A stretch of 38,389 bases of DNA from Enterobacteria phage SfI, in the sequence record JX509734; one strand, written 5' to 3'. The notes under the pieces were generated by a model, which had not been told where the DNA came from, made no database searches, and saw only the letters and a program-made list of their open reading frames with translations. Position numbers and translations under genes: made by a program. Shown in pieces: positions 18,227 through 36,724 of this stretch; the first letter of the stretch is position 1; every line of letters starts with the position of its first letter.

Positions 18227-19747
18227 CTATAGGTTAAGTTTTTTGTTAAATACTAATATTACTCTTCCTTCAAAGTTCAAAACTTCGTCAGGCTTACCTA
18301 ATTGTTCTTGAATACCTGCAAGGCAGGATGTCATTTCTTTACATCGTTCAGGTTCGTTAGCTATGGAAACTGCTATAAACTGTCGCTCAGGAGCAGAATT
18401 GAACGCCTCCTTGCTATGCCAAGAAGCCAGTGTCTGTTGTCTCACGCCAGTAAAGTTAATTTTCCCCGAATCAGCATTAAAGAAAACAGGAGTTATCTGT
18501 ATGTCCCCACCAGATAACCAATTTACAGTCATTGACAAATCCCAAAAAGAGCCGTACCCATAATGGAGATTATTTTTTTTTAAAAAATCAATGTATGATT
18601 TAACAATCTTCTCCTGATCGTGTAATGGTGAAGCATTATTTGTGTAAGATTTAATTGAACTGATCGAAAATAAAAATGCGATTAGATAAAATAATATCTT
18701 TGCTTTTGTTGATGTACCGATACAGCACAATATCAGTGCGAAACAGGTAACATTCATAAAGAAACGCATGCTAATATAATCAGGGGATTTATAGCTCAGT
18801 ATGAATGATGAGACAATACCTGCGATAGATAATAATGAAAATAACACAATATAAATACGGTATGTGTTTTTTTTATTGTCCGATAAAACAAACCACGCAG
18901 ATGTAATAATGGCAATGAACCAAATGACAAATGAGGCGTAAGATGTTGCGTTATTGTCGACAACTAATAAATTAAGACTTTTTCCTATTAACAGAATGCA
19001 CCATTTTGCATTTAAAATCATATCATTGAGTGATACAATTTCAAATTGGTGGGGAGGTATGTTAAGTAGATTTTGCAATACATTGGAAAGAGAGATTAAA
19101 CATGCAAATAGTATTAATGCAGTATGCTTAAATAATTTTTTATCCCATACAGAGAATAAAAAGTAAGATATTAATAGTGGAATAAAAAATGCAGCTGTAA
19201 ACCACGGATCGGATACGCTGGAAAATAATGCTGTCAAACTTAAGAGGAGAGTGATAAATATATTTTTATACTGTATGTTGAAAACAGATATAAGCAAGCA
19301 TAAAAAGCCGAAAGCGTTTGTTGAATTATGAGAAAAAGGATGTGATACAAAACCATAAGTGTATGAAAAATATGGTATTAGAGATAGAAGTATAATAGAA
19401 AATAAAGCAGGGGTAAACCCGAATGCCTTACGTAGCGTTAACATCGCTGCTATTACTATAGCAATAGAGAAAACTGCAGTTGATAATCTTAATGCTACTA
19501 AGCCATCATCACCTAACAGCATATAAAATAAAAAGTTAATTGGGTAAACGGTGAAATACCAATTATCCACGGTTGGTTTCCAGTCGTGGATTGATGATAT
19601 ACCATTCTCTAAAATATGCCTCCATACAATTGGGCTGTTAGCAACATCCGGTTCAACTGGAAAGTATCTGGTAGTCAACCAAGTTATTAGGAGTGCTGAT
19701 AAAGCCAATAATATTTTTAATGCTGATTGTTTAATACATATGCTCAT
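18227..19747 (-). CDS. GtrC-family serotype-specific O-antigen glucosyltransferase (polytopic membrane protein)
   Basis: 506-aa very hydrophobic, AT-rich ORF directly downstream of gtrB in the same operon; gtrC genes are the variable, serotype-defining member of gtr cassettes. Confidence 0.72.
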   Translation of the reverse strand: MSICIKQSALKILLALSALLITWLTTRYFPVEPDVANSPIVWRHILENGISSIHDWKPTVDNWYFTVYPINFLFYMLLGDDGLVALRLSTAVFSIAIVIAAMLTLRKAFGFTPALFSIILLSLIPYFSYTYGFVSHPFSHNSTNAFGFLCLLISVFNIQYKNIFITLLLSLTALFSSVSDPWFTAAFFIPLLISYFLFSVWDKKLFKHTALILFACLISLSNVLQNLLNIPPHQFEIVSLNDMILNAKWCILLIGKSLNLLVVDNNATSYASFVIWFIAIITSAWFVLSDNKKNTYRIYIVLFSLLSIAGIVSSFILSYKSPDYISMRFFMNVTCFALILCCIGTSTKAKILFYLIAFLFSISSIKSYTNNASPLHDQEKIVKSYIDFLKKNNLHYGYGSFWDLSMTVNWLSGGDIQITPVFFNADSGKINFTGVRQQTLASWHSKEAFNSAPERQFIAVSIANEPERCKEMTSCLAGIQEQLGKPDEVLNFEGRVILVFNKKLNL

Positions 19748-19749
19748 GG

Positions 19750-20670
19750 TTATTTTCTACCTTTCTTCAAAATATACTTAGGTCTTGATTTTGTTTCTAA
19801 GTAAATTCTACCTATATATTCACCGAGAACACCAATCCCGATCAGTTGCACTCCACCCAAGAAAAGTATTGATACAAGCAGGGAGGGATACCCGCGTACT
19901 GGGTTACCAAAGACAAGGGTGTCTATAATCATCCATGCACCATATAAAAATGAAATGCTTGCAACAAACAAGCCTATATAAGTCCATACGCGAAGAGGAA
20001 AGGTTGAAAAACTTGTGATACCTTCCAGTGCCAGATTCCATAATTTCCAGCCATTAAATTTTGAGATGCCAGCAACACGCTCTGCGCGTACATATTCAAC
20101 GACATCCGTCTGACCACCCACCCAGCTCAGTATGCCTTTCATGAAAAGATTGCGCTCAGGCAACAGTTTAATGTTCTCCACAACCTCACGAGACATGAGT
20201 CGAAAATCTCCGACATTTTCCTCGATCTTTGGGGTGCTTATTTTGTTGTGTAATTTATAGAACCACTCAGCTGTCTTACGTTTCAGTCGTCCATCAGTTG
20301 AGCGGTCTGAACGTTTAGCAAGCACCATGTCAGCACCTGCCTGCCACTTTTCAATAAGATGAGGGATAACCTCAATTGGGTCTTGCAGGTCGACATCAAT
20401 AGGAATTACAGCATCGCCGCTTGCATGGTCTAACCCTGCAAATAAGGCTGGTTCTTTACCAAAGTTGCGTGTAAATGACAGCGGAACAACTAGCGGGTCT
20501 GAAACAGCCAGCGCGTTAATAATTGACTCTGTGGCATCTTTACTTCCGTCATTTATGAATACAATTTCTACTTCATATGGCTTCAACTCTTGGAATTCAC
20601 GTACCGTTTTATAGAAAACAGGTATCGCTTCTTCTTCATTGAAGACAGGAACGACAAGAGATATTTTCAT
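19750..20670 (-). CDS. gtrB: Bactoprenol glucosyltransferase GtrB (GT2 family)
   Basis: 306-aa ORF ([17 protein letters not shown]...) with C-terminal TM segments; coupled to gtrA upstream. Confidence 0.88.
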
Positions 20671-21029
20671 TTCGCATCCCTAAAGACAATGAACTTTGAA
20701 TAGACGAAACCGCACACCAGACTGATGGCGGAGAAGGTGATAAGAGTGACTATTGGAGGAAGTGAGCATTTATCAGCTGCCCAACCAACAATCACACTCA
20801 ATATTCCCATAAATCCCACGTATAACATGTAGCGCATCGCTGTAGTCGATGCTTTGAATGTGAATCTTGCATTCGCGAAGAAGCTAAAGCTCACAGCCAC
20901 TACGAAACCTGTGAAGTTTGCCAGAGCCTGACTGGTATGTGCGGCATAGATACATACACCAAAAACCACCCAGTGTATAAGTGTGTTCAGCACACCTATA
21001 GATGTGTACTTTACAAATAACTTTAACAT
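20667..21029 (-). CDS. gtrA: GtrA flippase for undecaprenyl-phosphate glucose
   Basis: 120-aa four-TM protein; first gene of the minus-strand gtr operon. Confidence 0.85.
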
Positions 21030-21290: not shown

Positions 21291-22454
21291 TTACACATCA
21301 TTAGTACCTTCCTTATTTTTTGACTGGGACAAATTTGGGACCGATGGGTTCAGGATCGAGTCTATTTGCCGTGCGTGTTCGGTAAGGTGATTAGGTGCAA
21401 GGTGAGCATATCGACGAACCATTTCGATAGACTCCCAGCCTCCCATTTCCTGTAACACTGACAATGGGACTCCGGCTTGAACCAGCCAACTTGCCCAGGT
21501 GTGTCTCAAGTCGTGAAATCTGAAATCATCAATACCAGCCCGTCTCAGCGCCGCTTTCCAGGCTGTGTTTGCGTCATACCGCATCTTCCTTACTGTTGGC
21601 GCTTTCGTTCCGTCTGGTTTGGTACAGCTTTCCTTGTATACAAATACCCAACGGTGATGATTCCCGATTTGTTTTTTCAATACGCGACATGCAGTATCAT
21701 TCAGCGCAACGCCAATTGCGCGGTTTGATTTACTCTCTTCCGGGTTTATCCATGCCACCCGGCGCTGCATGTCTATTTGTTGCCATTCAAGGTTGATGAT
21801 GTTCGAGCGTCTTAAGCCTGTTGCCAGTGCAAATTCAACAACAGACTTTAATGGCTCCGGACATTCATCAATCAGCCTTTGTGCTTCATGAGGCTCCAGC
21901 CAGCGGATACGTTTATTCTTCGGTTGAGGCACTTTAATAATTGGTGCCTTATCCAGCATTTTCCATTCACGCTCTGCGGCTCTTAGCAGGGCCTTTATAA
22001 ATGAAAGATGCGTAGCCTTCGTTGCAACGGACGCTGGTTTTGGCGTGTATTCTGGAACAGGTTTCCCTTTTTTTCTGCATGCTTCTGCCCTGAGTTTCCA
22101 GTTTTCCTCATGACGCCGGTTCGTCATTTTCTGCATTGCTGAATAAATTTTTGATTCAGTAATGTCTTTTAGTTGCATTCCTGCGAAATGTTGAAGCCAG
22201 AATCCGATCCGGCTTTTGTCATCGTCCAGTGATTTTTTATGTGCTTTCTCTTCGAGCCACCTGACACACGCTTCCTCAAACGTCATATCAGGTATTTCAC
22301 CAAGTTTGCTGACCCGCCATGCTTCAGCCTTTAGCTTGTCATGGAGCTCTGTCGCCTGCCTTTTGTCCTTTGTTCCAAGAGACTGTTTAAATCTTTTACC
22401 GTTCGGCAATGTGAAACTGGCGTACCATATTTCACTTCTGCGGAAGAGTGACAT
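21291..22454 (-). CDS. int: Tyrosine integrase (P22 Int-like)
   Basis: 387-aa ORF ([47 protein letters not shown]...) with C-terminal [11 protein letters not shown]...RYAHL catalytic signature; adjacent to attP. Confidence 0.9.
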
Positions 22455-22681
22455 TTTCTTTCCTCTGTTATGCCATCACCCGCGCTCACCTTGATAGTAT
22501 GCAGCGGAGACTGAAGCGCCGCAATGCAGGCTTGTCGCGTTGTGAGGTAAGGAGATTTTGGTTTAGTGGGGTCTTTGCGTGTTGCCTGTAGGCGGCCTGT
22601 TCGTATCCAGTTGGTGGCGGTTGGTCTGGATATCTTAAGAAACTGACAGGCCTCATCGAGTGTGAGGCTGTATGTTTCCAT
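22331..22681 (-). CDS. xis: Excisionase (P22 Xis-like)
   Basis: Track ORF 22331..22711; GAGG RBS favours the ATG at 22681 ([33 protein letters not shown]...); overlaps the int 5-prime end. Confidence 0.78.
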
Positions 22682-22931
22682 GGTTACCTCTGCTTTTTGA
22701 ACGCATGTCACGTAACTTCTTAATGTGTTCTGCCGTTTCGATCTCTTCTGCTATCCGATCTGCATCAGCTTTATTCACAGGTTCAAAGTCATGATTAAAG
22801 CGGAACATGCTGGCGATACATGTTCTGCCTTTTCGGATGTAGTGAACTTTGTTGTGGGTAGAACGCAGGATTTTGCAGGGAGTGCCGTGGTGGTCGACGT
22901 ACCAGGTGTTAGGCAAAATGATTCTGAACAT
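22653..22931 (-). CDS. Hypothetical protein
   Basis: 92-aa ORF with GAGGTG RBS; lies in the pL-distal accessory region. Confidence 0.5.
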   Translation of the reverse strand: MFRIILPNTWYVDHHGTPCKILRSTHNKVHYIRKGRTCIASMFRFNHDFEPVNKADADRIAEEIETAEHIKKLRDMRSKSRGNHGNIQPHTR

Positions 22932-22978
22932 TTTTACACCTCAGTTGGACGATGTTGAAATTTGCTGCCTTGAGGCCA

Positions 22979-23197
22979 TCACAGTCCCCATTGTTTGTTC
23001 TTAAGTTCGATCTCCTCCTGGCAACTTGCACAAGTCCGACAACCCTGAACAGCCAGGCGTCTTCGCTCATCTATCGGATCGCCACACTCACAACAATGAG
23101 TTGCGGATACAGTCTGGTAGTTCAGACGACGCATTTTTATTGCTGTATTGCGCTGTAATTCTTCGATTTCTGATGCTGAATCAATGATGTCTGCCAT
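22979..23197 (-). CDS. TraR/DksA-family C4 zinc-finger protein
   Basis: 72-aa ORF with CxxC-x17-CxxC (CECG...CRTC) and the size typical of phage TraR homologues. Confidence 0.68.
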   Translation of the reverse strand: MADIIDSASEIEELQRNTAIKMRRLNYQTVSATHCCECGDPIDERRRLAVQGCRTCASCQEEIELKNKQWGL

Positions 23198-23295
23198 CTT
23201 TCATTAATCCCTGAATTGTTGGTTAATACGCTTGAGGGTGAATGCGAATAATAAAAAAGGAGCCTGTAGCTCCCTGATGATTTTGCTTTTCATGT

Positions 23296-23511
23296 TCACC
23301 GTTCCTTAAAGACGCCGTTTAACATACCGATTGCCAGACTTAAGTGAGTCGGTGTGAATCCCATCAGCGTTACCGTTTCGCGGTGCTTCTTTAGTACGCT
23401 ACGGCAAATGTCATTGACGTTTTTATCCGGAAACTGCTGTCTGGCTTTTTTGATTTCATAATTAGCCTGACGGGCAATGCTGCGAAGGGCGTTATTATGT
23501 TCTATTGTCAT
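23296..23511 (-). CDS. Hypothetical protein (71 aa)
   Basis: Track ORF 23296..23649; RBS GAGG placed 9 nt upstream of the ATG at 23511, which sits 8 nt downstream of the preceding gene stop. Confidence 0.45.
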   Translation of the reverse strand: MTIEHNNALRSIARQANYEIKKARQQFPDKNVNDICRSVLKKHRETVTLMGFTPTHLSLAIGMLNGVFKER

Positions 23512-23518
23512 ATTGGCC

Positions 23519-24271
23519 TCACACTTCGAATGCCAGTTGAGGGGTAAAGACGTCCCGTTCAGCGTTGTAATTAAGTGAACTGGCACTGTTGAATGATTCA
23601 ATGCGTTCCACAAGAACTTGCGTACGGGTTTCTTTACTTGCGGGAGCATATGGCGAACCTACCCAGGATTTGTCGATGCCTATATTTCTTGCGACGTTCG
23701 TGCTGTCTGCAGACGAAAGCGGTACATGAGTAAAAATGTCTTTATTTAACATCCGTAACCCATGAATCTTGGTGATTGGGTAGCCGTACTGATCTACAAC
23801 ATGACGTATAAGATCGCGTAGTTTAGCCCGACACGCTCTCGGTCGTTTTGCATCGTATTCCCCCATCGAGCCGATGCAGACGCGGGGAAACTCATGGCAC
23901 AGACGAATAAATCGCTCATCTGGTTCGTTCATGTGCCACACCGGAGCACCAATAAATTTACCGTGAGGCCATGCCGCAATCAGGGCGTCATTCTCTTCAC
24001 TGGTTCCGCCGATAACATCCGGGATAACCGCGAATGAGAAACGAGGGTGATTGCCCCAGCGTTCAACAAATCTGTAATATTCATTCCAGTCTACGGCCTT
24101 GTTTTTTGTCCAGAATGTGAATGCACCATTATCAAGAGCAAATGATTGGGTGACTTCGGAAGCCAGATCAATCTGAGCTGGATTAGCAAAACTGATGAAT
24201 GCGTGTCTGCCTTTCCAGGCTTTCAACGCACAGGTATCGGGAGTTATTGGACCACCGTGAAAATGAATCAT
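23519..24271 (-). CDS. TGT-fold protein, candidate DpdA-like DNA-guanine transglycosylase (7-deazaguanine DNA modification)
   Basis: 250-aa ORF with GGGAGAG RBS. By eye it carries LDNGAF (compare DSGGFQ of tRNA-guanine transglycosylase), IGSMG (compare LMGVG) and SADSTNVARNIG (compare DCVMPTRNARNG) in the right order, and lacks the C-terminal zinc site, as phage DpdA proteins do. The gene is solid; the functional call is inference. Confidence 0.45.
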   Translation of the reverse strand: MIHFHGGPITPDTCALKAWKGRHAFISFANPAQIDLASEVTQSFALDNGAFTFWTKNKAVDWNEYYRFVERWGNHPRFSFAVIPDVIGGTSEENDALIAAWPHGKFIGAPVWHMNEPDERFIRLCHEFPRVCIGSMGEYDAKRPRACRAKLRDLIRHVVDQYGYPITKIHGLRMLNKDIFTHVPLSSADSTNVARNIGIDKSWVGSPYAPASKETRTQVLVERIESFNSASSLNYNAERDVFTPQLAFEV

Positions 24272-24432
24272 ACACTCTCCCGTTTATTATTTATCTCCTC
24301 AGCCAGCCGCTGGGCTTTCAGCGGATTTCGGATAACAGAAAGGCCGGGAAATACCCAGCCTCGCTTTGTAACGGAGTAGACGAAAGTGATCGCGCCTACC
24401 CGGATATTATCGTGAGGATGCTTCATCGCCAT
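24268..24432 (-). CDS. Lambda orf60a-like small protein
   Basis: 54-aa ORF ([54 protein letters not shown]) overlapping the exo stop and ATGA-coupled to the downstream gene; under 60 aa so absent from the track. Confidence 0.5.
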
Positions 24433-25103
24433 TGCTCCCCAAATACAAAACCAATTTCAGCCAGTGCCTCGTCCATTTTTTCGATGAACTCCGGCACCAT
24501 CTCGTCAAAACTCGCCATGTAATTTTCATCCCGCTCAACCACGACATAATGCAGGCCTTCACGCTTCATTCGTGGGTCATAGTTGGCAAAGTACCAGGCA
24601 TCTTTTCGCGTTACCCACATGCTGTACTGCACCTGGGCCATGTAAGCCGACTTTATGGCCTCGAAACCACCGAGCCGGAATTTCATGAAATCCCGGGAGG
24701 TAAACGGGCATTTCAGTTCAAGGCCGTTGCCGTCACTGCATAAACCATCGGGAGAGCAGGCGGTGCGCATATTTTCGTCGCGATAGATGATCGGGGATTC
24801 AGTAACATTCACGCCGGAAGTGAATTCAAACAGGGTTCTGGCGTCGTTCTCGTACTGTTTTCCCCAGGCCAGCGCCTTAGCATTAACTTCCGGAGCCACA
24901 CCGGTGCAAACCTCAGCCAGCAGGGTGTGGAAGTAGGACATTTTCATGTCAGGCCACTTCTTTCCTGAGCGGGGCTTTGCTATCACGTTGTGAACTTCTG
25001 AAGCGGTGATGACGCCGAGCCGTAATTTGTGCCATGCATCATCCCCCTGTTCGACAGCTCTCACGTCGATCCCGGTACGCTGCAGGATAATGTCCGGTGT
25101 CAT
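24423..25103 (-). CDS. exo: Lambda-type 5-prime to 3-prime exonuclease Exo (Red-alpha)
   Basis: 226-aa ORF ([53 protein letters not shown]...) matching lambda Exo as remembered; coupled to bet. Confidence 0.9.
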
Positions 25104-25885
25104 GCTGCCACCTTCTGCTCAGTGGCTTTCTGTTTCAGGAATCCAAGAGCTTTCACTGCTTCGGCCTGTGTCAGTTCTGACGATGCGCGAATGTCGCGGC
25201 GAAATATCTGGGAACAGAGCGGCAATAAGTCGTCATCCCATGTTTTATCCAGGGCGATCAGCAGAGTGTTAATCTCCTGCATGGTTTCATCGTTAACCGG
25301 AGTGATGTCGCGTTCCGGCTGACGTTCTGCAGTGTATGCAGTATTTTCGACAATGCGCTCGGCTTCATCCTTGTCATAGATACCAGCAAATCCGAAGGCC
25401 AGACGGGCACACTGAATCATGGCTTTATGCCGTAACATCCGTTTGGGATGCGACTGCCACGGTCCGGTGATTTCTCTGCCTTCGCGGGTTTTGAATGGTT
25501 CGCGGCGGCATTCATCCATCCACTCGGTAACGCAGATCGGATGATTACGGTCCTTGCGGTAAATCCGGCATGTGCAGGATTCATTGTCCTGCTCAAAGTC
25601 CATGCCATCAAACTGCTGGTTTTCATTGATGATACGGGACCAGCCATCAACGCCCACCACCGGAACGATGCCGTTCTGCTTGTCAGGGAAGGCGTAAATT
25701 TCTTTCGTCCACGGATTAAGGCCGTACTGGTTGGCGACGATCAACAATGCGATGAACTGCGCATCGCTGGCATCACCTTTAAATGCCGTCTGGCGAAGAG
25801 TGGTGATCAGTTCCTGTGGGTCGACAGAATCCATGCCGACACGTTCAGCCAGCTTCCCAGCCAGCGTTGCGAGTGCTGTACTCAT
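25100..25885 (-). CDS. bet: Bet single-strand annealing protein (Red-beta)
   Basis: 261-aa ORF ([66 protein letters not shown]...) matching lambda Bet as remembered. Confidence 0.9.
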
Positions 25886-25890
25886 CCGTT

Positions 25891-26307
25891 TTATACCTCT
25901 GAATCAATATCAACCTGGTGGTGAGCAATGGTTTCAACCATGTACCGGATGTGTTCTGCCATGCGCTCCTGAAACTCAACATCGTCATCAAACGCACGGG
26001 TAATGGCTTTTTTGATGGCCCCGTGGCGTTGCAAATGATCGAAGCATAGCGATTCAAACAGGTGCTGGGGCAGGCCTTTTTCCATGTCGTCTGCCAGTTC
26101 TGCCTCTTTCTCTTCACGGGCGATCTGCTGGTAGTGACGCGCCCAGCTCTGAGCCTCAAGACGATCCTGAATGTAATAAGCGTTCATGGCTGAACTCCTG
26201 AAATAGCTGTGAAAATATCGCCCGCGAAATGCCGGGCTGATTAGGAAAACAGGAAAGGGGGTTAGTGAATGCTTTTGCTTGATCTCAGTTTCAGTATTAA
26301 TATCCAT
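25891..26307 (-). CDS. gam: Gam, RecBCD inhibitor
   Basis: 138-aa ORF ([61 protein letters not shown]...) matching lambda Gam as remembered. Confidence 0.9.
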
Positions 26308-26405
26308 TTTTTATAAGCGTCGACGGCCTCACGAAACATCTTTTCATCGCCAATAAAAGTGGCGATAGTGAATTTAGTCTGGATAGCCATAAGTGTTTGA
26401 TCCAT
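26262..26405 (-). CDS. kil: Kil (host cell-division inhibitor)
   Basis: 47-aa reading frame [47 protein letters not shown] inside track ORF 26262..26531, with GGAG RBS; overlaps the gam start as in lambda. Confidence 0.72.
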
Positions 26406-26538
26406 TTTTTGGGACTCCTGGCTGATTAAGTATGTCGATAAGGCGTTTCCATCCGTCACGTAATTTACGGGTGATTCGTTCAAGTAAAGATTCGGAAGGG
26501 CAGCCAGCAACAGGCCACCCTGCAATGGCATATTGCAT
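26374..26538 (-). CDS. cIII: cIII, FtsH (HflB) protease inhibitor
   Basis: 54-aa frame read by hand ([54 protein letters not shown]), overlapping the kil start; under 60 aa so absent from the track. Confidence 0.8.
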   Translation of the reverse strand: MQYAIAGWPVAGCPSESLLERITRKLRDGWKRLIDILNQPGVPKNGSNTYGYPD

Positions 26539-26610
26539 GGTGTGCTCCTTATTTATACATAACGAAAAACGCCTCGAGTGAAGCGTTATTGGTATGCGGT
26601 AACGCCGCGC

Positions 26611-26979
26611 TCAGGCGGCTTTGATAGTCATATCATCTGAATCAAATATTCCTGATGTATCGATATCGGTAATTCTTATTCCTTCGCTACCATCCATTGG
26701 AGGCCATCCTTCCTGACCATTTCCATCATTCCAGTCGAACTCACACACAACACCATATGCATTTAAGTCGCTTGAAATTGCTATAAGCAGAGCATGTTGC
26801 GCCAGCATGATTAATACAGCATTTAATACAGAACCGTGTTTATTGAGTCGGTATTCAGAGTCTGACCAGAAATTATTAATCTGGTGAAGTTTTTCCTCTG
26901 TCATTACGTCATGGTCGATTTCAATTTCTATTGATGCTTTCCAGTCGTAATCAATGATGTATTTTTTGATGTTTGACAT
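26611..26979 (-). CDS. ea10: Ea10-like protein
   Basis: 122-aa ORF with GAGGA RBS, at the lambda ea10 position between cIII and ral; identity from memory of size and context. Confidence 0.6.
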   Translation of the reverse strand: MSNIKKYIIDYDWKASIEIEIDHDVMTEEKLHQINNFWSDSEYRLNKHGSVLNAVLIMLAQHALLIAISSDLNAYGVVCEFDWNDGNGQEGWPPMDGSEGIRITDIDTSGIFDSDDMTIKAA

Positions 26980-26995
26980 CTATTCATATCCTCAC

Positions 26996-27024
26996 AGAAA
27001 AAAATCGCCCTCACACTGGAGGGC
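26996..27024 (-). terminator. Rho-independent terminator (tL2-like) in the pL operon
   Basis: On the minus strand GCCCTC-CAGTGT-GAGGGC hairpin followed by GATTTTTTTCT, between ral and ea10. Confidence 0.5.
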
Positions 27025-27181
27025 AAAGAAGATTTCCAATAATCAGAACAAGTCGGCTCCTGTTTAGTTACGAGCGACATTGCTCCGTGTATTCACTCGT
27101 TGGAATGAATACACAGTGCAGTGTTTATTCTGTTATTTATGCCAAAAATAAAGGCCACTATCAGGCAGCTTTGTTGTTCTG

Positions 27182-27361
27182 TTAACCAAGTTCTCTGGCA
27201 ATCATTGCCGTCGTTCGTATTGCCCATTTATCGACATATTTCCCATCTTCCATTACAGGAAACATTTCTTCAGGCTTAACCATGCATTCCGATTGCAGCT
27301 TGCATCCATTGCATCGCTTGAATTGTCCACACCATTGATTTTTATCAATAGTCGTAGTCAT
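27182..27361 (-). CDS. ral: Ral-like restriction alleviation protein
   Basis: 59-aa frame read by hand (MTTTIDKNQWCGQFKRCNGCKLQSECMVKPEEMFPVMEDGKYVDKWAIRTTAMIARELG); lambda Ral as I remember it is a few residues longer at the C-terminus. Confidence 0.62.
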   Translation of the reverse strand: MTTTIDKNQWCGQFKRCNGCKLQSECMVKPEEMFPVMEDGKYVDKWAIRTTAMIARELG

Positions 27362-27431
27362 ACGGATAGTCCTGGTATTGTTCCATCACATCCTGAGGAT
27401 GCTCTTCGAACTCTTCAAATTCTTCTTCCAT
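27345..27431 (-). CDS. Small acidic peptide (28 aa), lambda orf28-like
   Basis: MEEEFEEFEEHPQDVMEQYQDYPYDYDY with GAGGTG RBS; overlaps the ral start. Confidence 0.3.
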   Translation of the reverse strand: MEEEFEEFEEHPQDVMEQYQDYPYDYDY

Positions 27432-27631
27432 ATATCACCTCAAATAAGTTGTTTGCTGCGAAAGTAAATACGCTTAAGTTACCTGTTATTTATTCCACCA
27501 AGTTCCGTATCTATCTATCCAGTTACACCAATCATCGACACTCCATTTTGTTGTGTCGCATTTTGGCAACTGGCATGAATATCTACCTTCTTTGTAAAGT
27601 CGGCGTTTGACTTTCTTGAGCATGGCTCACC

Positions 27632-27964
27632 TCAATCGTAATAAGCTGGAATTGATTTTCCGCGTTGCTTCTGGCGGCCTGAGCAAGTCACACCCATTTC
27701 ACAGCGTGGCTTGCTGTACCATGTGCGCTGATTCTTGCGCTCAATACGTTGCAGGTTGCTTTCAATCTGTTCGTGGTATTCAGCCAGCACCGTAAGGTCT
27801 ATCGGATTCAGTGCGCTTTCTACTCGTGATTTCGGTTTGCGATTCAGCGAGAGAATAGGGCAGTTAACTGGTTTTGCGCTTACCCCAACCAACAGGGGAT
27901 TTGCTGCTTTCCATTGAGCCTGTTTCTCTGCGCGACGTTCGCGGCGGCGTGCTTGTGCATCCAT
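27632..27964 (-). CDS. N: N antiterminator (lambda-type, Arg-rich motif)
   Basis: Track ORF 27632..28054; true start at MDAQARRRERRAEKQAQWKAANPLLVGVSAKPVN... (ATG at 27964, preceded by AGGAGAATCCAG); the C-terminal about 25 aa differ from lambda N as remembered. Confidence 0.82.
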   Translation of the reverse strand: MDAQARRRERRAEKQAQWKAANPLLVGVSAKPVNCPILSLNRKPKSRVESALNPIDLTVLAEYHEQIESNLQRIERKNQRTWYSKPRCEMGVTCSGRQKQRGKSIPAYYD

Positions 27965-28074
27965 CTGGATTCTCCTGTCAGTTAGCTTTGAGTAACGCGC
28001 CGTGATGCTTATCTCCACGGTTGCTGTCTTGCAGCTGCATTTCGCGCTACTCAAAGCCTTCTGCTTTGAATGCT

Positions 28075-28105
28075 GCCCTTCTTCAGGGCTAAATTTTTAA
28101 GAGCC
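28075..28105 (-). promoter_or_regulatory. nutL site (boxA-like GCTCTTA plus boxB GCCCTGAAGAAGGGC)
   Basis: On the minus strand GCTCTTAAAAATTTAGCCCTGAAGAAGGGC; boxB is a perfect 5-bp stem with GAAGA loop; boxA differs at one position from the lambda CGCTCTTA. Confidence 0.7.
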
Positions 28106-28145
28106 TCACCTTCAATGGTGGTCAGTGCGTCCTGCTGATGTGCTC

Positions 28146-28208
28146 AGTATCACCGCTAGTGGTATTTATGTCAACACCGCCAGAGATAATTTATCACCGC
28201 AGATGGTT
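28146..28208 (-). promoter_or_regulatory. pL promoter with oL1-oL2-oL3 repressor operators
   Basis: On the minus strand TTGACA (28169-28174) and GATACT (28146-28151) with 17-bp spacing; three 17-bp operators at 28148-28164, 28172-28188 and 28192-28208 with the TATCACCGC half-site. Confidence 0.8.
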
Positions 28209-28353
28209 ATCTGTATGTTTTTTATATGAATTTATTTTTTGCAGGGGGCATTGTTTGGTAGGTGAGAGATCTGAATTGCTATGTTTAGTGAGTTGTATCT
28301 ATTTATTTTTCAATAAATACAATTGGTTATGTGTTTTGGGGGCGATCGTGAGG

Positions 28354-28380
28354 CAAAGAAAACCCGGCGCTGAGGCCGGG
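28354..28380 (-). terminator. Terminator downstream of rexB (timm-like)
   Basis: CCCGGC/GCCGGG stem with 6-nt loop immediately after the rexB stop, followed on the minus strand by TTTTCTTTG. Confidence 0.45.
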
Positions 28381-28815
28381 TTATTCTTGTTCTCTGGTCA
28401 AATTATATAGTTGGAAAACAAGGATGCATATATGAATGAACGATGCAGAGGCAATGCCGATGGCGATAGTGGGTATCATGTAGCCGCTTATGCTGGAAAG
28501 AAGCAATAACCCGCAGAAAAACAAAGCTCCAAGCTCAACAAAACTAAGGGCATAGACAATAACTACCGATGTCATATACCCATACTCTCTAATCTTGGCC
28601 AGTCGGCGCGTTCTGCTTCCGATTAGAAACGTCAAGGCAGCAATCAGGATTGCAATCATGGTTCCTGCATATGATGACAATGTCGCCCCAAGACCATCTC
28701 TATGAGCTGAAAAAGAAACACCAGGAATGTAGTGGCGGAAAAGGAGATAGCAAATGCTTACGATAACGTAAGGAATTATTACTATGTAAACACCAGGCAT
28801 GATTCTGTTCCGCAT
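28381..28815 (-). CDS. rexB: RexB, membrane channel of the Rex abortive-infection/exclusion system
   Basis: 144-aa polytopic membrane ORF immediately downstream of rexA in the cI operon; AT-rich. Confidence 0.85.
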   Translation of the reverse strand: MRNRIMPGVYIVIIPYVIVSICYLLFRHYIPGVSFSAHRDGLGATLSSYAGTMIAILIAALTFLIGSRTRRLAKIREYGYMTSVVIVYALSFVELGALFFCGLLLLSSISGYMIPTIAIGIASASFIHICILVFQLYNLTREQE

Positions 28816-28830
28816 AATTACTCCTGATAA

Positions 28831-29670
28831 TTAATCCTTAACTTTGCCCACCTGCCTTTTAAAACATTCCAGTATATCACTTTTCATTCTTGCGTAGCAA
28901 TATGCCATCTCTTCAGCTATCTCAGCATTGGTGACCTTGTTTAGAGGCGCTGAGAGATGGCCTTTTTCTGATAGATAATGTTCTGTTAAAATATCTCCGG
29001 CCTCATCTTTTGCCCGCAGGCTAATGTCTGAAAATTGAGGTGACGGGTTAAAAATAATATCCTTGGCAACCTTTTTTATATCCCTTTTAAATTTTGGCTT
29101 AATGACTATATCCAATGAGTCAAAAAGCTCCCCTTCAATATCTGTTGCCCCTAAGACCTTTAATATATCGCCAAATACAGGTAGCTTGGCTTCTACCTTC
29201 ACCGTTGTTCGGCCGATGAAATGCATATGCATAACATCGTCTTTGGTGGTTCCCCTCATCAGTGGCTCTATCTGAACGCGCTCTCCACTGCTTAATGACA
29301 TTCCTTTCCCGATTAAAAAATCTGTCAGATCGGATGTGGTCGGCCCGAAAACAGTTCTGGCAAAACCAATGGTGTCGCCTTCAACAAACAAAAAAGATGG
29401 GAATCCCAATGATTCGTCATCTGCGAGGCTGTTCTTAATATCTTCAACTGAAGCTTTAGAGCGATTTATCTTCTGAACCAGACTCTTGTCATTTGTTTTG
29501 GTAAAGAGAAAAGTTTTTCCATCGATTTTATGAATATACAAATAATTGGAGCCAACCTGCAGGTGATGATTATCAGCCAGCAGAGAATTAAGGAAAACAG
29601 ACAGGTTTATTGAGCGCTTATCTTTCCCTTTATTTTTGCTGCGGTAAGTCGCATAAAAACCATTCTTCAT
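28831..29670 (-). CDS. rexA: RexA, sensor of the Rex exclusion system
   Basis: 279-aa ORF (MKNGFYATYRSKNKGKDKRSINLSVFLNSLLADNHHLQVG...) downstream of cI; matches lambda RexA in size and sequence as remembered. Confidence 0.85.
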   Translation of the reverse strand: MKNGFYATYRSKNKGKDKRSINLSVFLNSLLADNHHLQVGSNYLYIHKIDGKTFLFTKTNDKSLVQKINRSKASVEDIKNSLADDESLGFPSFLFVEGDTIGFARTVFGPTTSDLTDFLIGKGMSLSSGERVQIEPLMRGTTKDDVMHMHFIGRTTVKVEAKLPVFGDILKVLGATDIEGELFDSLDIVIKPKFKRDIKKVAKDIIFNPSPQFSDISLRAKDEAGDILTEHYLSEKGHLSAPLNKVTNAEIAEEMAYCYARMKSDILECFKRQVGKVKD

Positions 29671-29782
29671 AATTCAATCCATTTACTATGTTATGTTCTG
29701 AGGGGAGTGAAAATTCCCCTAATTCGATGAAGATTCTTGCTCAATTGTTATCAGCTATGCGCCGACCAGAACACCTTGCCGA

Positions 29783-30499
<717 letters not shown>

Positions 30500-30506
30500 T
30501 TAAATC

Positions 30507-30572
30507 TATCACCGCAAGGGATAAATATCTAACACCGTGCGTGTTGACTATTTTACCTCTGGCGGTGATAAT
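30507..30572. promoter_or_regulatory. oR3-oR2-oR1 operators with divergent pRM / pR promoters
   Basis: TATCACCGCAAGGGATA (30507-30523), TAACACCGTGCGTGTTG (30530-30546), TACCTCTGGCGGTGATA (30554-30570); pR -35 TTGACT 30544-30549 and -10 GATAAT 30567-30572; cro RBS AGGAGG follows. Confidence 0.88.
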
Positions 30573-30587
30573 GGTTGCATGTACTAA

Positions 30588-30797
<210 letters not shown>

Positions 30798-30804
30798 ATA
30801 ACCC

Positions 30805-30836
30805 CGCTCTTACACATTCCAGCCCTGAAAAAGGGC
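30805..30836 (+). promoter_or_regulatory. nutR site (boxA CGCTCTTA plus boxB GCCCTGAAAAAGGGC)
   Basis: CGCTCTTACACATTCCAGCCCTGAAAAAGGGC between cro and cII. Confidence 0.75.
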
Positions 30837-30915
30837 ATCAAATTAAACCACACCTATGGTGTATGCATTTATTTGCATACATTCAATCAATTGTTATCTA
30901 AGGAAATACTTACAT

Positions 30916-31209
30916 ATGGTTCGTGCAAACAAACGCAACGAGGCTCTACGAATCGAGAGTGCGTTGCTTAACAAAATCGCAATGCTTGGAACTGAGAAGA
31001 CAGCGGAAGCTGTGGGCGTTGATAAGTCGCAGATCAGCAGGTGGAAGAGGGACTGGATTCCAAAGTTCTCAATGCTGCTTGCTGTTCTTGAATGGGGGGT
31101 CGTTGACGACGACATGGCTCGATTGGCGCGACAAGTTGCTGCGATTCTCACCAATAAAAAACGCCCGGCGGCAACCGAGCGTTCTGAACAAATCCAGATG
31201 GAGTTCTGA
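30916..31209 (+). CDS. cII: cII transcriptional activator
   Basis: Track ORF 30856..31209; true start at MVRANKRNEALRIESALLNKIAMLGTEKTAEAVGVDKSQISRWKRDWIPKF... (97 aa). Confidence 0.9.
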   Translation: MVRANKRNEALRIESALLNKIAMLGTEKTAEAVGVDKSQISRWKRDWIPKFSMLLAVLEWGVVDDDMARLARQVAAILTNKKRPAATERSEQIQMEF

Positions 31210-31241
31210 GGTCATTACTGGATCTATCAACAGGAGTCATT

Positions 31242-32141
31242 ATGACAAATACAGCAAAAATACTCAACTTCGGCAGAGGTAACTTTGCCGGACAGGAGCG
31301 TAATGTGGCAGATCTCGATGATGGTTACGCCAGACTATCAAATATGCTGCTTGAGGCTTATTCGGGCGCAGATCTGACCAAGCGACAGTTTAAAGTGCTG
31401 CTTGCCATTCTGCGTAAAACCTATGGGTGGAATAAACCAATGGACAGAATCACCGATTCTCAACTTAGCGAGATTACAAAGTTACCCGTCAAACGGTGCA
31501 ATGAAGCCAAGTTAGAACTCGTCAGAATGAATATTATCAAGCAGCAAGGCGGCATGTTTGGACCAAATAAAAACATCTCAGAATGGTGCATCCCTCAAAA
31601 CGAGGGAAAATCCCCTAAAACGAGGGATAAAACATCCCTCAAATTGGGGGATTGCTATCCCTCAAAACAGGGGGACACAAAAGACACTATTACAAAAGAA
31701 AAAAGAAAAGATTATTCGTCCGAGAATTCTGGCGAATCCTCTGACCAGCCAGAAAACGATCTTTCTGTGGTTAAACCGGATGCTGCAATTCAGAGCGGCA
31801 GCAAGTGGGGGACAGCAGAAGACCTGACCGCCGCAGAGTGGATGTTTGACATGGTGAAGACCATCGCGCCATCAGCCAGAAAACCGAATTTTGCAGGGTG
31901 GGCTAACGATATCCGCCTGATGCGTGAACGTGACGGACGTAACCACCGCGACATGTGCGTGCTGTTCCGCTGGGCATGCCAGGACAACTTCTGGTCCGGT
32001 AACGTGCTGAGTCCGGCCAAACTCCGCGACAAGTGGACCCAGCTCGAAATCAACCGAAACAAGCAACAGGCTGGCGTGACAGCCGGCAAACCAAAACTCG
32101 ACCTGACGAACACTGACTGGATTTACGGGGTGGATTTATGA
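31242..32141 (+). CDS. O: Replication initiator O
   Basis: 299-aa ORF (MTNTAKILNFGRGNFAGQERNVADLDDGYARLSNMLLEAYSG...) containing the ori iterons; coupled to P. Confidence 0.9.
   Translation: MTNTAKILNFGRGNFAGQERNVADLDDGYARLSNMLLEAYSGADLTKRQFKVLLAILRKTYGWNKPMDRITDSQLSEITKLPVKRCNEAKLELVRMNIIKQQGGMFGPNKNISEWCIPQNEGKSPKTRDKTSLKLGDCYPSKQGDTKDTITKEKRKDYSSENSGESSDQPENDLSVVKPDAAIQSGSKWGTAEDLTAAEWMFDMVKTIAPSARKPNFAGWANDIRLMRERDGRNHRDMCVLFRWACQDNFWSGNVLSPAKLRDKWTQLEINRNKQQAGVTAGKPKLDLTNTDWIYGVDL
31591..31675 (+). repeat. Replication origin iterons (four O-binding repeats) with adjacent AT-rich region
   Basis: Four spaced repeats of the TCCCTCAAAACGAGGGA type at 31591, 31611, 31635 and 31658, followed by an A-rich stretch at 31676-31720, inside the O gene. 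Confidence 0.78.
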
Positions 32142-32839
32142 AAAACATCGCCGCACAGATGGTTAACTTTGACCGTGAGCAGATGCGCCGGATCGCCAAC
32201 AATATGCCGGAACAGTACGACGAAAAGCCGCAGGTACAGCAGGTAGCGCAGATCATCAACGGTGTGTTCAGCCAGTTACTGGCAACTTTCCCGGCGAGCC
32301 TGGCTAACCGTGACCAGAATGAACTGAACGAAATCCGCCGCCAGTGGGTTCTGGCTTTCCGGGAAAACGGGATCACCACAATGGAACAGGTTAACGCTGG
32401 AATGCGCGTAGCCCGTCGGCAGAATCGACCATTCCTGCCATCACCCGGGCAGTTTGTCGCCTGGTGCCGGGAAGAAGCATCTGTTAACGCCGGGCTGCCA
32501 AACGTCAGCGAGCTGGTTGATATGGTTTACGAGTATTGCCGGAAGCGTGGCCTGTATCCGGATGCAGAGTCTTATCCGTGGAAATCGAACGCGCATTACT
32601 GGTTGGTTACCAACTTGTACCAGAACATGCGGGCCAATGCGCTGGCTGACGCGGAATTACGGCGCAAGGCTGCCGATGAACTGACCTGTATGACAGCGCG
32701 AATTAACCGTGGTGAGACGATACCTGAACCAGTAAAACAACTTCCTGTTATGGGCGGTAGACCTCTAAATCGTGCACAGGCTCTGGCGAAGATCGCAGAA
32801 ATTAAAGCTAAGTTCGGACTGAAAGGAGCAAGTGTATGA
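32138..32839 (+). CDS. P: Replication protein P (DnaB helicase loader)
   Basis: 233-aa ORF ATGA-coupled to O, matching lambda P as remembered. Confidence 0.9.
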   Translation: MKNIAAQMVNFDREQMRRIANNMPEQYDEKPQVQQVAQIINGVFSQLLATFPASLANRDQNELNEIRRQWVLAFRENGITTMEQVNAGMRVARRQNRPFLPSPGQFVAWCREEASVNAGLPNVSELVDMVYEYCRKRGLYPDAESYPWKSNAHYWLVTNLYQNMRANALADAELRRKAADELTCMTARINRGETIPEPVKQLPVMGGRPLNRAQALAKIAEIKAKFGLKGASV

Positions 32840-33126
32840 CGGGCAAAGAGGCAATTATTCATTACCTGGGGACGCATAAGAGCTTCTGTGCACAGGACGT
32901 TGCCGCGGTAACAGGCGCAACCGTAACCAGCATAAATCAGGCTGCGGCTAAAATGGCGCGGGCAGGAATCCTGGTCGTTGATGGTAAGGTCTGGCGAACG
33001 GTGTATTACCGGTTCGCTACCAGAGAAGAATGGGAAGGAAAGGTGAGCACGAATCTGATTTTTAAGGAGTGTCGCCAGAGTGCCGCGATGAAACGGGTAT
33101 TGGCGGTATATGGAGTTAAAAGATGA
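32836..33126 (+). CDS. ren: Ren (Rex exclusion escape)
   Basis: 96-aa ORF coupled to P; MTGKEAIIHYLGTHKSFCAQDVAAVTGATVTSINQAAAKMARAGILVVDGK... Confidence 0.78.
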   Translation: MTGKEAIIHYLGTHKSFCAQDVAAVTGATVTSINQAAAKMARAGILVVDGKVWRTVYYRFATREEWEGKVSTNLIFKECRQSAAMKRVLAVYGVKR

Positions 33127-33151
33127 CCATCTACATTACTGAGCTAATAAC

Positions 33152-33183
33152 AGGCCTGCTGGTAATCGCAGGCCTTTTTATTT
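33152..33183 (+). terminator. Rho-independent terminator (tR2-like)
   Basis: AGGCCTGC / GCAGGCCT 8-bp stem with 8-nt loop followed by TTTTTATTT, between ren and ninB. Confidence 0.6.
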
Positions 33184-33199
33184 GGGGGAGAGGGAAGTC

Positions 33200-33640
33200 A
33201 TGAAAAAACTAACCTTTGAAATTCGATCTCCAGCACATCAGCAAAACGCTATTCACGCAGTACAGCAAATTCTTCCAGACCCAACCAAACCAATCGTAGT
33301 AACCATTCAGGAACGCAACCGCAGCTTAGACCAAAACCGAAAGCTTTGGGCTTGCCTTGGTGACGTCTCTCGTCAGGTTGAATGGCATGGTCGCTGGCTG
33401 GATGCAGAAAGCTGGAAGTGTGTGTTTACCGCAGCATTAAAGCAGCAGGACGTTGTTCCTAACCTTGCCGGGAATGGCTTTGTGGTAATAGGCCAGTCAA
33501 CCAGCAGGATGCGTGTAAGCGAATTTGCGGAGCTATTAGAGCTTATACAGGCATTCGGTACAGAGCGTGGCGTTAAGTGGTCAGACGAAGCGCGACTAGC
33601 TCTCGAATGGAAAGCGCGATGGGGAGATCGGGCTGCATGA
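33200..33640 (+). CDS. ninB: NinB (Orf family recombination mediator)
   Basis: Track ORF 33182..33640; start taken at MKKLTFEIRSPAHQQNAIHAVQQILPDPTKPIVVTIQERNRSLDQNRKLWA... Confidence 0.8.
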   Translation: MKKLTFEIRSPAHQQNAIHAVQQILPDPTKPIVVTIQERNRSLDQNRKLWACLGDVSRQVEWHGRWLDAESWKCVFTAALKQQDVVPNLAGNGFVVIGQSTSRMRVSEFAELLELIQAFGTERGVKWSDEARLALEWKARWGDRAA

Positions 33641-34164
33641 CTATCAAATCAAATACGCCAGCACACGACAAGGACTGCTGGCAAACGCCGCTTTGGCTTT
33701 TTGATGCACTGGATATTGAGTTTGGATTCTGGCTGGATTCGGCAGCGAGCGACAAAAATGCTCTGTGCGCTCACTGGTTAACTGAGGCCGACGACGCGCT
33801 AAATTCTGAGTGGATAAGCCACGGTGCAATCTGGAATAACCCACCGTACAGCAATATCAGGCCGTGGGTGGAAAAAGCCGCTGAGCAGTGCATACAACAG
33901 CGACAGACGGTAGTGATGCTTGTGCCAGAGGATATGTCTGTCGGATGGTTCAGCAAGGCTCTGGAGAGTATTGACGAAGTTCGCATCATCACTGATGGAC
34001 GGATTAATTTTATCGAACCATCGACAGGGCTGGAGAAGAAGGGAAACAGCAAAGGTTCCATGCTGCTGATTTGGCGACCGTTCATCAATCCTCGACGGAT
34101 GTTTACTACCGTATCCAAAGCGGCATTGATGGCGATCGGGCAGGGCGTCAGGAGGGCAGCATGA
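33637..34164 (+). CDS. Phage Dam-like DNA N6-adenine methyltransferase (NPPY motif)
   Basis: Track ORF 33577..34164; ATG at 33637 is ATGA-coupled to the ninB stop; the 175-aa product has the WNNPPYS motif typical of N6-adenine methyltransferases; occupies the position of lambda ninC. Confidence 0.68.
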
Positions 34165-34343
34165 GACGACAGCGACGAAGTATCACCGACATCATCTGCG
34201 AAAACTGCAAATACCTTCCAACGAAGCGCTCCAGAAATAAACGCAAGCCAATCCCAAAAGAATCTGACGTAAAAACCTTCAACTACACGGCTCACCTGTG
34301 GGATATCCGGTGGCTTAGAGAACGTGCGAGGAAAACAAGGTGA
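34161..34343 (+). CDS. ninE: NinE-like protein
   Basis: 60-aa frame ([60 protein letters not shown]) inside track ORF 34071..34343; coupled to the methyltransferase stop. Confidence 0.6.
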
Positions 34344-34510
34344 TTGACCAAAATCGAAGTTACGAACAAGGAAGTGTCGAGCGAGCTTTAACGTGCGCTA
34401 ACTGCGGTCAGAAGCTGCATGTGCTGGAAGTTCACGTGTGTGAGCACTGCTGCGCAGAACTGATGAGCGATCCGAATAGCTCGATGCACGAGGAAGAAGA
34501 CGATGGCTAA
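34340..34510 (+). CDS. ninF: NinF-like small Cys-rich protein (GTG start)
   Basis: 56-aa frame read by hand ([56 protein letters not shown]); overlaps ninE and ninG ends. Confidence 0.5.
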
Positions 34511-35114
34511 ACCAGCGCGAAGACGATGTAAAAACGATGAATGTCGGGAATGGTTTCACCCTGCATTCGCCAATCAGTGGTGGTGCTCTCCAGAGTGTGG
34601 AACCAAGATAGCACTCGAACGACGAAGCAAAGAACGCGAAAAAGCGGAAAAGGCAGCAGAGAAGAAACGACGACGAGAGGAGCAGAAACAGAAAGATAAA
34701 CTTAAGATTCGAAAACTCGCCTTAAAGCCCCGCAGTTACTGGATTAAACAAGCCCAACAAGCCGTAAACGCCTTCATCAGAGAAAGAGACCGCGACTTAC
34801 CATGTATCTCGTGCGGAACGCTCACGTCTGCTCAGTGGGATGCCGGGCATTACCGGACAACTGCTGCGGCGCCTCAACTCCGATTTGATGAACGCAATAT
34901 TCACAAGCAATGCGTGGTGTGCAACCAGCACAAAAGCGGAAATCTCGTTCCGTATCGCGTCGAACTGATTAGCCGCATCGGGCAGGAAGCAGTAGACGAA
35001 ATCGAATCAAACCATAACCGCCATCGCTGGACTGTCGAAGAGTGCAGGGCCATCAAGGCGGAGTATCAGCAGAAACTCAAAGACCTGCGAAACAGCAGAA
35101 GTGAGGCCGCATGA
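34503..35114 (+). CDS. ninG: NinG / Rap recombination endonuclease
   Basis: 203-aa ORF with N-terminal Cys cluster (CKNDECREW...CSPEC) and basic region, as in lambda NinG. Confidence 0.78.
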
Positions 35115-35737: not shown

Positions 35738-35812
35738 GGGTCAGTCGTATAAAGGTCATTACGGAAGGCTGTTAACCTTCTTATCGTGGTTCGAGTCCAC
35801 GCTGTCCCGCCA
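35738..35812 (+). tRNA. tRNA, anticodon GTT by hand fold (Asn-like); slightly imperfect stems
   Basis: 75 nt with CCA end; perfect anticodon stem GAAGG/CCTTC with loop CTGTTAA, T-arm CGTGG-TTCGAGT-CCACG, one T-T mismatch in the acceptor stem and a 3-bp D-stem. Confidence 0.5.
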
Positions 35813-35817
35813 AATAT

Positions 35818-35893
35818 GCTGGTTTAGCTCCAATGGTAGAGCGGTCGCCTTGTAAGCGAATGGGTAGCGGTTCAAGTCCGTTAACCAGCACCA
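35818..35893 (+). tRNA. tRNA-Thr (anticodon TGT) by hand fold
   Basis: 76 nt; perfect 7-bp acceptor stem (GCTGGTT/AACCAGC), D-stem GCTC/GAGC, anticodon loop CTTGTAA, T-loop TTCAAGT, 3-prime ACCA. Confidence 0.72.
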
Positions 35894-36011
35894 TAACTGA
35901 GCCGTAGTCACTGGATGTCCTGAATTCATCAGTGATAGTTATGCTGCGGTCTTCTTTTTCTCCCTTCCCAATATAAGAACTACGCAATCCGTTACTGGCG
36001 GAGGCGTTGCT

Positions 36012-36227
36012 ATGAAATCAATGGACAAAATCTCAACTGGCATTGCCTACGGAACATCCGCTGGTAGTGCGGGATACTGGTTTTTGCAGTGGTTGGATCA
36101 GGTCAGTCCATCACAGTGGGCTGCGATTGGGGTGCTTGGAAGCCTTGTGTTGGGCTTTCTCACCTATCTGACAAATCTGTACTTCAAAATCAGAGAAGAC
36201 AGAAGAAAGGCTGCGAGAGGTGAATAA
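36012..36227 (+). CDS. S: Pinholin S (phage 21 S21-type, dual-start motif)
   Basis: 71-aa [74 protein letters not shown] with Met1/Met4 dual start and two TM segments; matches S21 as remembered. Confidence 0.85.
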
Positions 36228-36724
36228 TGCCTCCATCATTACGAAAAGCCGTTGCTGCGGCTATTGGTGGCGGGGCTATTGCTATAGCATCTGTGTTAAT
36301 CACTGGCCCAAGTGGTAACGATGGTCTGGAAGGCGTCAGCTACTTACCATATAAAGATATCGTTGGTGTATGGACTGTATGTTACGGGCATACCGGAAAA
36401 GACATTATGCTCGGTAAAACGTATACCGAAGCAGAATGCAAAGCCCTCCTGAATAAAGACCTTGCCACTGTCGCCAGACAAATTAACCCGTACATCAAAG
36501 TCGATATACCGGAAACAACGCGCGGCGCTCTTTACTCGTTCGTTTACAACGTTGGTGCTGGAAATTTCAGAACATCGACGCTTCTTCGCAAAATAAACCA
36601 GGGCGATATCAAAGGCGCATGTGATCAGCTACGGCGCTGGACATACGCTGGCGGTAAGCAATGGAAAGGGCTGATGACTCGCCGTGAGATTGAGCGTGAA
36701 GTCTGTTTGTGGGGGCAACAATGA
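36227..36724 (+). CDS. R: SAR endolysin R (T4-lysozyme-like muramidase with N-terminal signal-arrest-release helix)
   Basis: 165-aa ORF with Gly/Ala-rich hydrophobic N-terminus ([18 protein letters not shown]) followed by a lysozyme-like domain; TAATG-coupled to S. Confidence 0.85.

Follow-up and report, generated by a model that had tools for sequence, protein, structure and literature searches.

The window, by which we mean the whole stretch of 38,389 nucleotides from Enterobacteria phage SfI that was analysed (JX509734), carries on its minus strand the genes cI, rexA and rexB, in the order of the lambda annotation (Table 1). The two rex genes fill positions 28381-29670 downstream of cI, and the coordinates and sizes that the original prediction gave for them are those of the ORF list. 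A spacer of 112 nt separates cI from rexA and one of 15 nt separates rexA from rexB, with AGGAG standing upstream of the rexB start. The block is AT-rich, as had been proposed, at 40.8% GC (rexA 40.1%, rexB 42.5%) versus 50.1% for the window and 55% for its structural half.

We turn to the products, for which a match to lambda RexA and RexB in size, order and sequence had been anticipated. BLASTP against lambda (NC_001416) bears this out at every residue, with 279/279 identities for RexA, 144/144 for RexB, whose DNA is identical as well, and 237/237 for CI. The PDB entry 8TWQ, 'Protein rexA', is also identical to the RexA of the window over 279/279 residues. The RexA and RexB family models are matched far above threshold, both in Pfam (PF15969 for RexA, E = 1e-97 and 326.8 bits at a cut-off of 25; PF15968 for RexB, E = 8.5e-92) and in PADLOC (9e-110 for RexA and 8.6e-61 for RexB); NCBIfam is without any RexA or RexB model, which makes that scan uninformative for both proteins. 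CI has the HTH_3 and Peptidase_S24 domains (Pfam), and nothing in the sequence argues against the RexA/RexB identification. Both rex ORFs had been described as polytopic membrane proteins, which is right for one of the two: a Kyte-Doolittle scan finds four hydrophobic stretches in RexB (approximately residues 3-30, 42-69, 80-111 and 112-139) and zero hydrophobic segments in RexA. The published proteins are a soluble RexA of 31 kDa and a RexB with four helices in the inner membrane (PMC11077077). Members of the RexB family have a mass of about 16 kDa. The RexB of the window is accordingly predicted to be a four-helix inner-membrane protein, and its RexA is predicted to be a soluble, dimeric, non-specific DNA-binding protein and no membrane protein.

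In terms of distribution, a megablast search with window positions 28200-29800 against 50,697 phage records returned lambda and a dozen lambda-like records, all at 99.9% over the full length. In complete E. coli genomes, rexAB is present at an identity of at least 99% in 99 of 5426, and in these 99 genomes, as in the lambda records, rexA and rexB are annotated in the same arrangement. Among the 25 of the 99 that were listed, nearly all are K-12-derived or laboratory strains. With the window, imm-lambda and its rexAB are on record in a natural carrier that is not K-12. As a separate observation, the lambda rex region is matched at 99.9% by the 48,361-bp GenBank record MW057783.1, 'Campylobacter phage CJLB-4'; this record looks to be lambda and is probably mislabelled or a contaminant.

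Table 1. Positions of the genes and sequence signals of the window
Feature	Position	Strand	Description
gtr cluster, third gene	18227-19747	-	506-aa membrane protein; downstream of gtrB; 33% GC
gtrB	19750-20670	-	Glycos_transf_2, 7.4e-31; 299/306 (98%) identical to SfII GtrB
gtrA	20667-21029	-	PF04138, 1.9e-14; 119/120 (99%) identical to SfII GtrA
Integrase (Sf-type)	21291-22454		Beside gtr
Lambda_thermo	26493-26551	-	cIII thermoregulator; Rfam, 88.5 bits
ral-N interval	27457-27707		~250 bp
N	27632-27964		110 aa
OL1, OL2, OL3	28148-28164, 28172-28188, 28192-28208		Left border of the immunity region; operator pattern matches
P_L	28174..28146	-	Scan
T_IMM (lambda intrinsic terminator)	28355..28382	-	Predicted end of cI-rexA-rexB and P_LIT transcripts; terminator scan: AACCCGGCCTCAGCGCCGGGTT + TTCTTTGCCT
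rexB	28381..28815	-	144 aa; ORF list
Candidate P_LIT (promoter-like site)	28871..28900	-	TTGCTA-18-TATACT with upstream TG; consensus scan; identical in lambda
rexA	28831..29670	-	279 aa; ORF list
Hairpin AGGGGA-N8-TCCCCT	29701..29720	-	cI-rexA spacer; no T-run; no terminator by scan; identical in lambda
cI repressor	29783..30496	-	237 aa; opens the P_RM operon that also holds rexA and rexB
OR3, OR2, OR1	30507-30523, 30530-30546, 30554-30570		Divergent P_RM (leftward, to cI-rexA-rexB) and P_R (rightward); sequence and operator pattern matches
P_R	30544-30572		TTGACT-17-GATAAT; consensus scan
ren	32836..33126	+	96 aa; 87/96 (91%) identical to lambda Ren NP_040633
tRNA-Asn (GTT)	35738-35812	+	Between Q antiterminator and lysis genes
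tRNA-Thr (TGT)	35818-35893	+	Between Q antiterminator and lysis genes

Control sequences of the cI-rexA-rexB operon

The operators OR1 to OR3 show zero differences from lambda in a base-by-base alignment. P_RM, a weak promoter that is activated by CI, stays below the consensus scan, and its DNA is that of lambda, base for base. The candidate P_LIT site lies within the last 70 nt of rexA, at its 3' end, from where it would transcribe rexB alone. Promoter-like sites found by the consensus scan are no commoner here than in shuffled sequence, so it is the identity of the site to lambda's, rather than the scan, that supports its assignment to P_LIT.

The T_IMM hairpin (28382..28361, minus strand) overlaps the rexB stop codon and comprises 8 pairs, 6 of them G-C, followed by TTTTCTTT. 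It folds at -21.2 kcal/mol versus -9.9 ± 2.3 kcal/mol for shuffles (z = -4.84), and both lambda and E. coli 2824 have exactly this sequence. The terminator scan of the minus strand finds no terminator-like site in the cI-rexA or the rexA-rexB interval. The rex block had been credited with a terminator of its own; a hairpin with a T-run does stand at the rexB stop, but it closes the whole cI-rexA-rexB operon and not a separate rex unit.

In lambda, P_RM drives cI-rexA-rexB, P_LIT lies in the end of rexA and T_IMM is found 'immediately downstream of rexB' (bioRxiv 10.1101/2021.04.19.439022). The sequences of P_RM, the P_LIT region and T_IMM are all unchanged from lambda, where this arrangement is established, and the predicted co-transcription with cI is to this extent upheld; the operon signals of the window are, at the sequence level, those of lambda. 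CI bound at OR1 and OR2 would thus activate P_RM to give a single leaderless cI-rexA-rexB transcript that ends at T_IMM, and P_LIT would add extra rexB.

The left border of the immunity region, on the other hand, differs from lambda in one of its operators: at position 28157, OL1 has TATCACCGCTAGTGGTA in the window and TATCACCGCCAGTGGTA in both lambda and the E. coli 2824 prophage. This private, single-base change stands beside the operator centre and inside the P_L spacer. It could have an effect on the control of P_L by CI, though not directly on that of P_RM, and repression of P_L might have shifted with it in this lineage; alternatively, the base may have been misread in sequencing.

A lambda immunity cassette in a Shigella-type chassis

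Between 28245 and 31486, a segment that spans rexB, rexA, cI, OR with pRM and pR, cro, cII and the first ~245 bp of O, the window has 1 difference from lambda in 3242 bp. It is the sole difference in rexA and falls at 28942, in the third position of the Leu243 codon (CTG>CTA), where it is synonymous. When the base-by-base alignment with lambda is taken over 28052-31300, six differences are found, five of them at 28091-28244 between nutL and OL and the sixth at 28942. Compared with lambda rexA (NC_001416 36275-37114) and rexB (35825-36259), then, the proteins, their order, the 15-bp and 112-bp spacers, OR/P_RM, the P_LIT region and T_IMM are the same; what is unlike lambda is the one synonymous rexA base and, outside the operon, the one OL1 base and small changes around nutL. 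The differences at 28942, 28157 and 28244 are private with respect to laboratory lambda. Per 250 bp, the number of differences beyond the cassette is 6-24 on the right, within O and P, and 1-4 leftward of N. This sharp change in divergence at the cassette edge suggests a recent exchange of the immunity cassette.

The remainder of the phage is of a different kind. Positions 1-22.7 kb, which hold terminase, portal, sheath, tape measure, baseplate, gtr and integrase, are 97-98% identical to the Shigella serotype-converting myoviruses SfII, SfV and SfIV, and positions 25-37 kb are ~97% identical to lambda and ev243. Judged by these matches, the window is a mosaic in which an SfII/SfV-type myovirus chassis has received a lambda immunity cassette (OL/P_L, rexB, rexA, cI, OR, cro and cII). 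In contrast to lambda, its morphogenesis module is of the SfII/SfV myovirus type and its integrase of the Sf type; gtr is present, N is a variant, and sieB is lacking. The gene order is that of the virion or circular genome, unlike that of an integrated prophage, with terminase at position 1 and gtr beside int across attP. The same int-gtrA junction occurs in DAXVIY010000029.1, a 37.5-kb contig of an E. coli assembly, and so hints that the phage DNA of that sample was excised or circular.

The genes that flank the cassette (N, ral, cIII, O, P and ren) are lambdoid too, at 90-99% to lambda. A 720-bp segment of lambda between ral and N is without a counterpart in the window, and with it sieB (lambda 34482-35036), the third of lambda's exclusion genes, which was sought as a further barrier, is absent; the ral-N interval of the window matches Sf6 gene 36 and phi458. 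N is 92% identical to lambda N and shows T5A in the arginine-rich motif, R34C and an altered C-terminal region, and the boxA of nutL reads GGCTCTTA where lambda has CGCTCTTA, E. coli 2824 being the same as the window. An Rfam scan of the window returned the cIII thermosensor and two tRNA genes only, with zero matches in the rex block; the tRNA genes are placed in the same way in the E. coli 2824 prophage.

Comparison with related phages and prophages helps to place this combination. First of all, a prophage in the chromosome of the chicken E. coli strain 2824, at thrW, matches window positions 22000-30500 at 99.1% over 8.5 kb, including rexAB, the 333-bp N gene and the lack of sieB; it differs in having another virion module and no gtr cluster beside thrW. 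Second, phage ev243 has imm-lambda with rexAB like the window, but has kept sieB. Third, SfII, SfV and SfIV share structural genes, gtrA, gtrB and integrase with the window at 97-98% identity, whereas in their immunity regions rex genes are lacking and a terminator follows straight after a CI-like repressor of another kind. The type-specific gtr gene of these phages bears no relation to the 506-aa gene of the window. Finally, E. coli YZ22MPE54 (NZ_CP139337.1 3610500-3654500) holds a sibling prophage at thrW beside paoD, with the same chassis and an identical gtr cluster. In its immunity region (locus 32550-34676), the place of rexAB after an XRE-type repressor is taken by three small hypothetical genes, of 107, 150 and 140 aa, and rex genes are absent; these three may be another lysogen-expressed cargo. 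Because strains 2824 and YZ22MPE54 each hold one half of the combination, the pairing of rexAB with gtr in the window is the product of module shuffling, and its assembly is credible.

Taken together, we put at about 96% the probability that these genes are the rexA-rexB pair of phage lambda, in a lambda immunity cassette that has recombined into a different temperate-phage chassis. By residue identity the pair is the prototype Rex system itself, neither a homologue nor a variant of it, and as such it is already known. Rex-like pairs elsewhere, such as Sbash gp30/31, CarolAnn gp44 and the P. putida RexABpp, share a two-gene layout by the repressor, with a soluble DNA-binding A protein, a membrane B protein and a defence phenotype (PMC11077077; PMC12894663; bioRxiv 10.1101/2021.04.19.439022); these Mycobacterium, Gordonia and Pseudomonas pairs are distant homologues or analogues, whereas the pair of the window is the lambda prototype. 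Annotators gain from this a clean call for the rex region. It is also mildly informative that an imm-lambda cassette is conserved almost perfectly inside a more divergent mosaic phage that is a natural carrier. Modules are seen here to shuffle between lambda-type early regions and Shigella-type serotype-converting myoviruses.

Proposed mechanism and role of the pair

The prototype Rex system has reportedly been known since Benzer's work on T4 rII. Because every residue and every control sequence equals that of lambda, the lambda literature applies directly to the window, and we infer from this identity both expression and every phenotype in the lysogen, T4 rII exclusion included. RexA would be a soluble, RdgC-like, DNA-binding dimer and RexB a four-helix inner-membrane protein; the two would interact, and the roles proposed for them are those of sensor/activator for RexA and effector/channel for RexB. 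In the classical model, an infecting phage (T4 rII, some lambdoid phages) would give a signal that is sensed by RexA, which would activate RexB by opening its channel, with collapse of membrane potential and ATP and abortion of the infection (PMC12894663). The block to T4 rII growth on lambda lysogens is exerted by RexA and RexB, which interact, and is abolished by deletion of rexAB (PMC11077077). However, the literature has yet to agree on the mechanism, and the classical model is incomplete. The signal that activates Rex is unknown and the Pseudomonas RexAB homologue causes membrane damage without depolarisation (PMC12894663); DNA binding by RexA does not track with exclusion, the two being separated by the D215W mutant (PMC11077077); and exclusion is maybe a by-product of energy sensing, as suggested by Thomason et al. 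(bioRxiv 10.1101/2021.04.19.439022).

The selected role may lie elsewhere, in tuning the phage's own switch from lysogeny to lysis and its early replication, with exclusion of other phages as a side effect. On its own, RexA binds both CI and DNA and makes the lytic state more stable, with RexB moderating RexA (bioRxiv 10.1101/2021.04.19.439022; PMC11077077), and RexB guards lambda O and the antitoxins Phd and MazE from Clp proteolysis (PMC11077077). In the phage of the window, RexA would in the same way bind CI and DNA and lock the lytic state, and RexB would temper RexA, spare O from ClpXP and shield antitoxins. The D215W mutant speaks for such a role, as does the inseparability of rexAB from the cI, cro, cII and OR cassette, whose single difference in 3242 bp, next to flanks that are several percent divergent, fits co-adapted components; furthermore, the sibling prophage with another repressor is without rexAB. 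On the other hand, exclusion of T4 rII needs both Rex proteins and is lost with them, and phages of Mycobacterium, Gordonia and Pseudomonas carry distant RexAB-like pairs with a defence phenotype (PMC12894663; bioRxiv 10.1101/2021.04.19.439022). The two roles are, moreover, not mutually exclusive. We hold switch tuning as the selected role to be possible but tentative; 'switch modulator first, exclusion second' is a live alternative on what was selected, and not on the identity of the genes.

The near-identical cassette in a gtr-carrying SfII/SfV-type myovirus of wild E. coli, combined with the rex-less sibling prophage, also points to a claim about movement, namely that rexAB is a passenger that never travels without the cI/cro/OR switch and was acquired very recently. 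We consider this unlikely. If true, it would favour Rex as a co-adapted component of the switch over Rex as a free-standing defence island.

Returning to a lambda Rex pair that is expressed in the lysogen, it could be argued that rexAB is intact but silent or ineffective in its host, in that the RexA:RexB ratio and the physiology of the host both bear on exclusion, and this phage may naturally live in a host unlike K-12. Rex effects do hinge on protein balance, with RexB modulating RexA (bioRxiv 10.1101/2021.04.19.439022), and the Rex proteins are reported to interact with the host NADH dehydrogenase and CysN (PMC11077077). Yet the control region and the proteins are those of lambda, where lysogens express the operon constitutively (PMC11077077; bioRxiv 10.1101/2021.04.19.439022), and the host is E. 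coli, in whose chromosomes the identical gtr cluster and the sibling prophages sit, so that a silent pair appears very improbable. Least credible of all is an artefact, in which the assembly would have fused laboratory lambda DNA (vector or control) to an SfV-like prophage and so created a rexAB/gtr combination that nature lacks: the near identity of 28245-31486 to laboratory lambda and the frequency of lambda DNA as a contaminant, as in the 'Campylobacter phage' record that is plainly lambda, would be expected from it, but we reject it because the region from the Sf-type integrase through rexAB is uninterrupted in the E. coli 2824 chromosome, the three private differences set the window apart from laboratory lambda, and divergence from lambda shifts gradually without a clean break into flanks that are lambdoid as well.

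The gtr cluster and barriers to superinfection

The original prediction also placed a gtrABC cluster alongside rexAB and counted at least two superinfection barriers. In such clusters, which glucosylate the O-antigen and thereby convert the serotype, gtrA encodes a small membrane protein, gtrB a GT2 bactoprenol glucosyltransferase and gtrC a type-specific integral-membrane glucosyltransferase. The first two assignments stand on the close identity of the window's gtrA and gtrB to those of SfII (Table 1), but the third gene is no known Shigella GtrC type. This candidate was rejected because the 506-aa protein has no similarity to SfII GtrII and its search against the 50,697 phage records yielded nothing above 40% identity. 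Its single Pfam match, to PMT_2, is sub-threshold (16.7 bits at a cut-off of 26.1). A hypothetical protein of E. coli has the same sequence (100% identity), the PGAP label is 'glycosyltransferase family 39 protein', and homologues at 35-70% identity occur across Enterobacterales, mostly unnamed; one of them, at 38%, is named 'GtrI family protein'. The gene is probably an uncharacterised type-specific O-antigen transferase. The exact gtr cluster is found in 3 of 5426 complete E. coli genomes.

CI immunity itself bars homo-immune phages. Beside it, it is reasonable to infer that Rex forms a second barrier to superinfection, and the gtr cluster, with its uncharacterised specific transferase, is a plausible third that would act at adsorption, through the modified O-antigen.

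Finally, the window carries a gene that is linked to Rex from the other side. Its ren product, for which there is no Pfam model, was compared directly with lambda Ren (Table 1), and the lambda annotation names this product Ren exclusion protein. Toothman and Herskowitz are said to have found in 1980 that ren shields lambda from Rex exclusion. Thomason et al. describe the Rex proteins as interacting with both O and Ren in two-hybrid assays (bioRxiv 10.1101/2021.04.19.439022).
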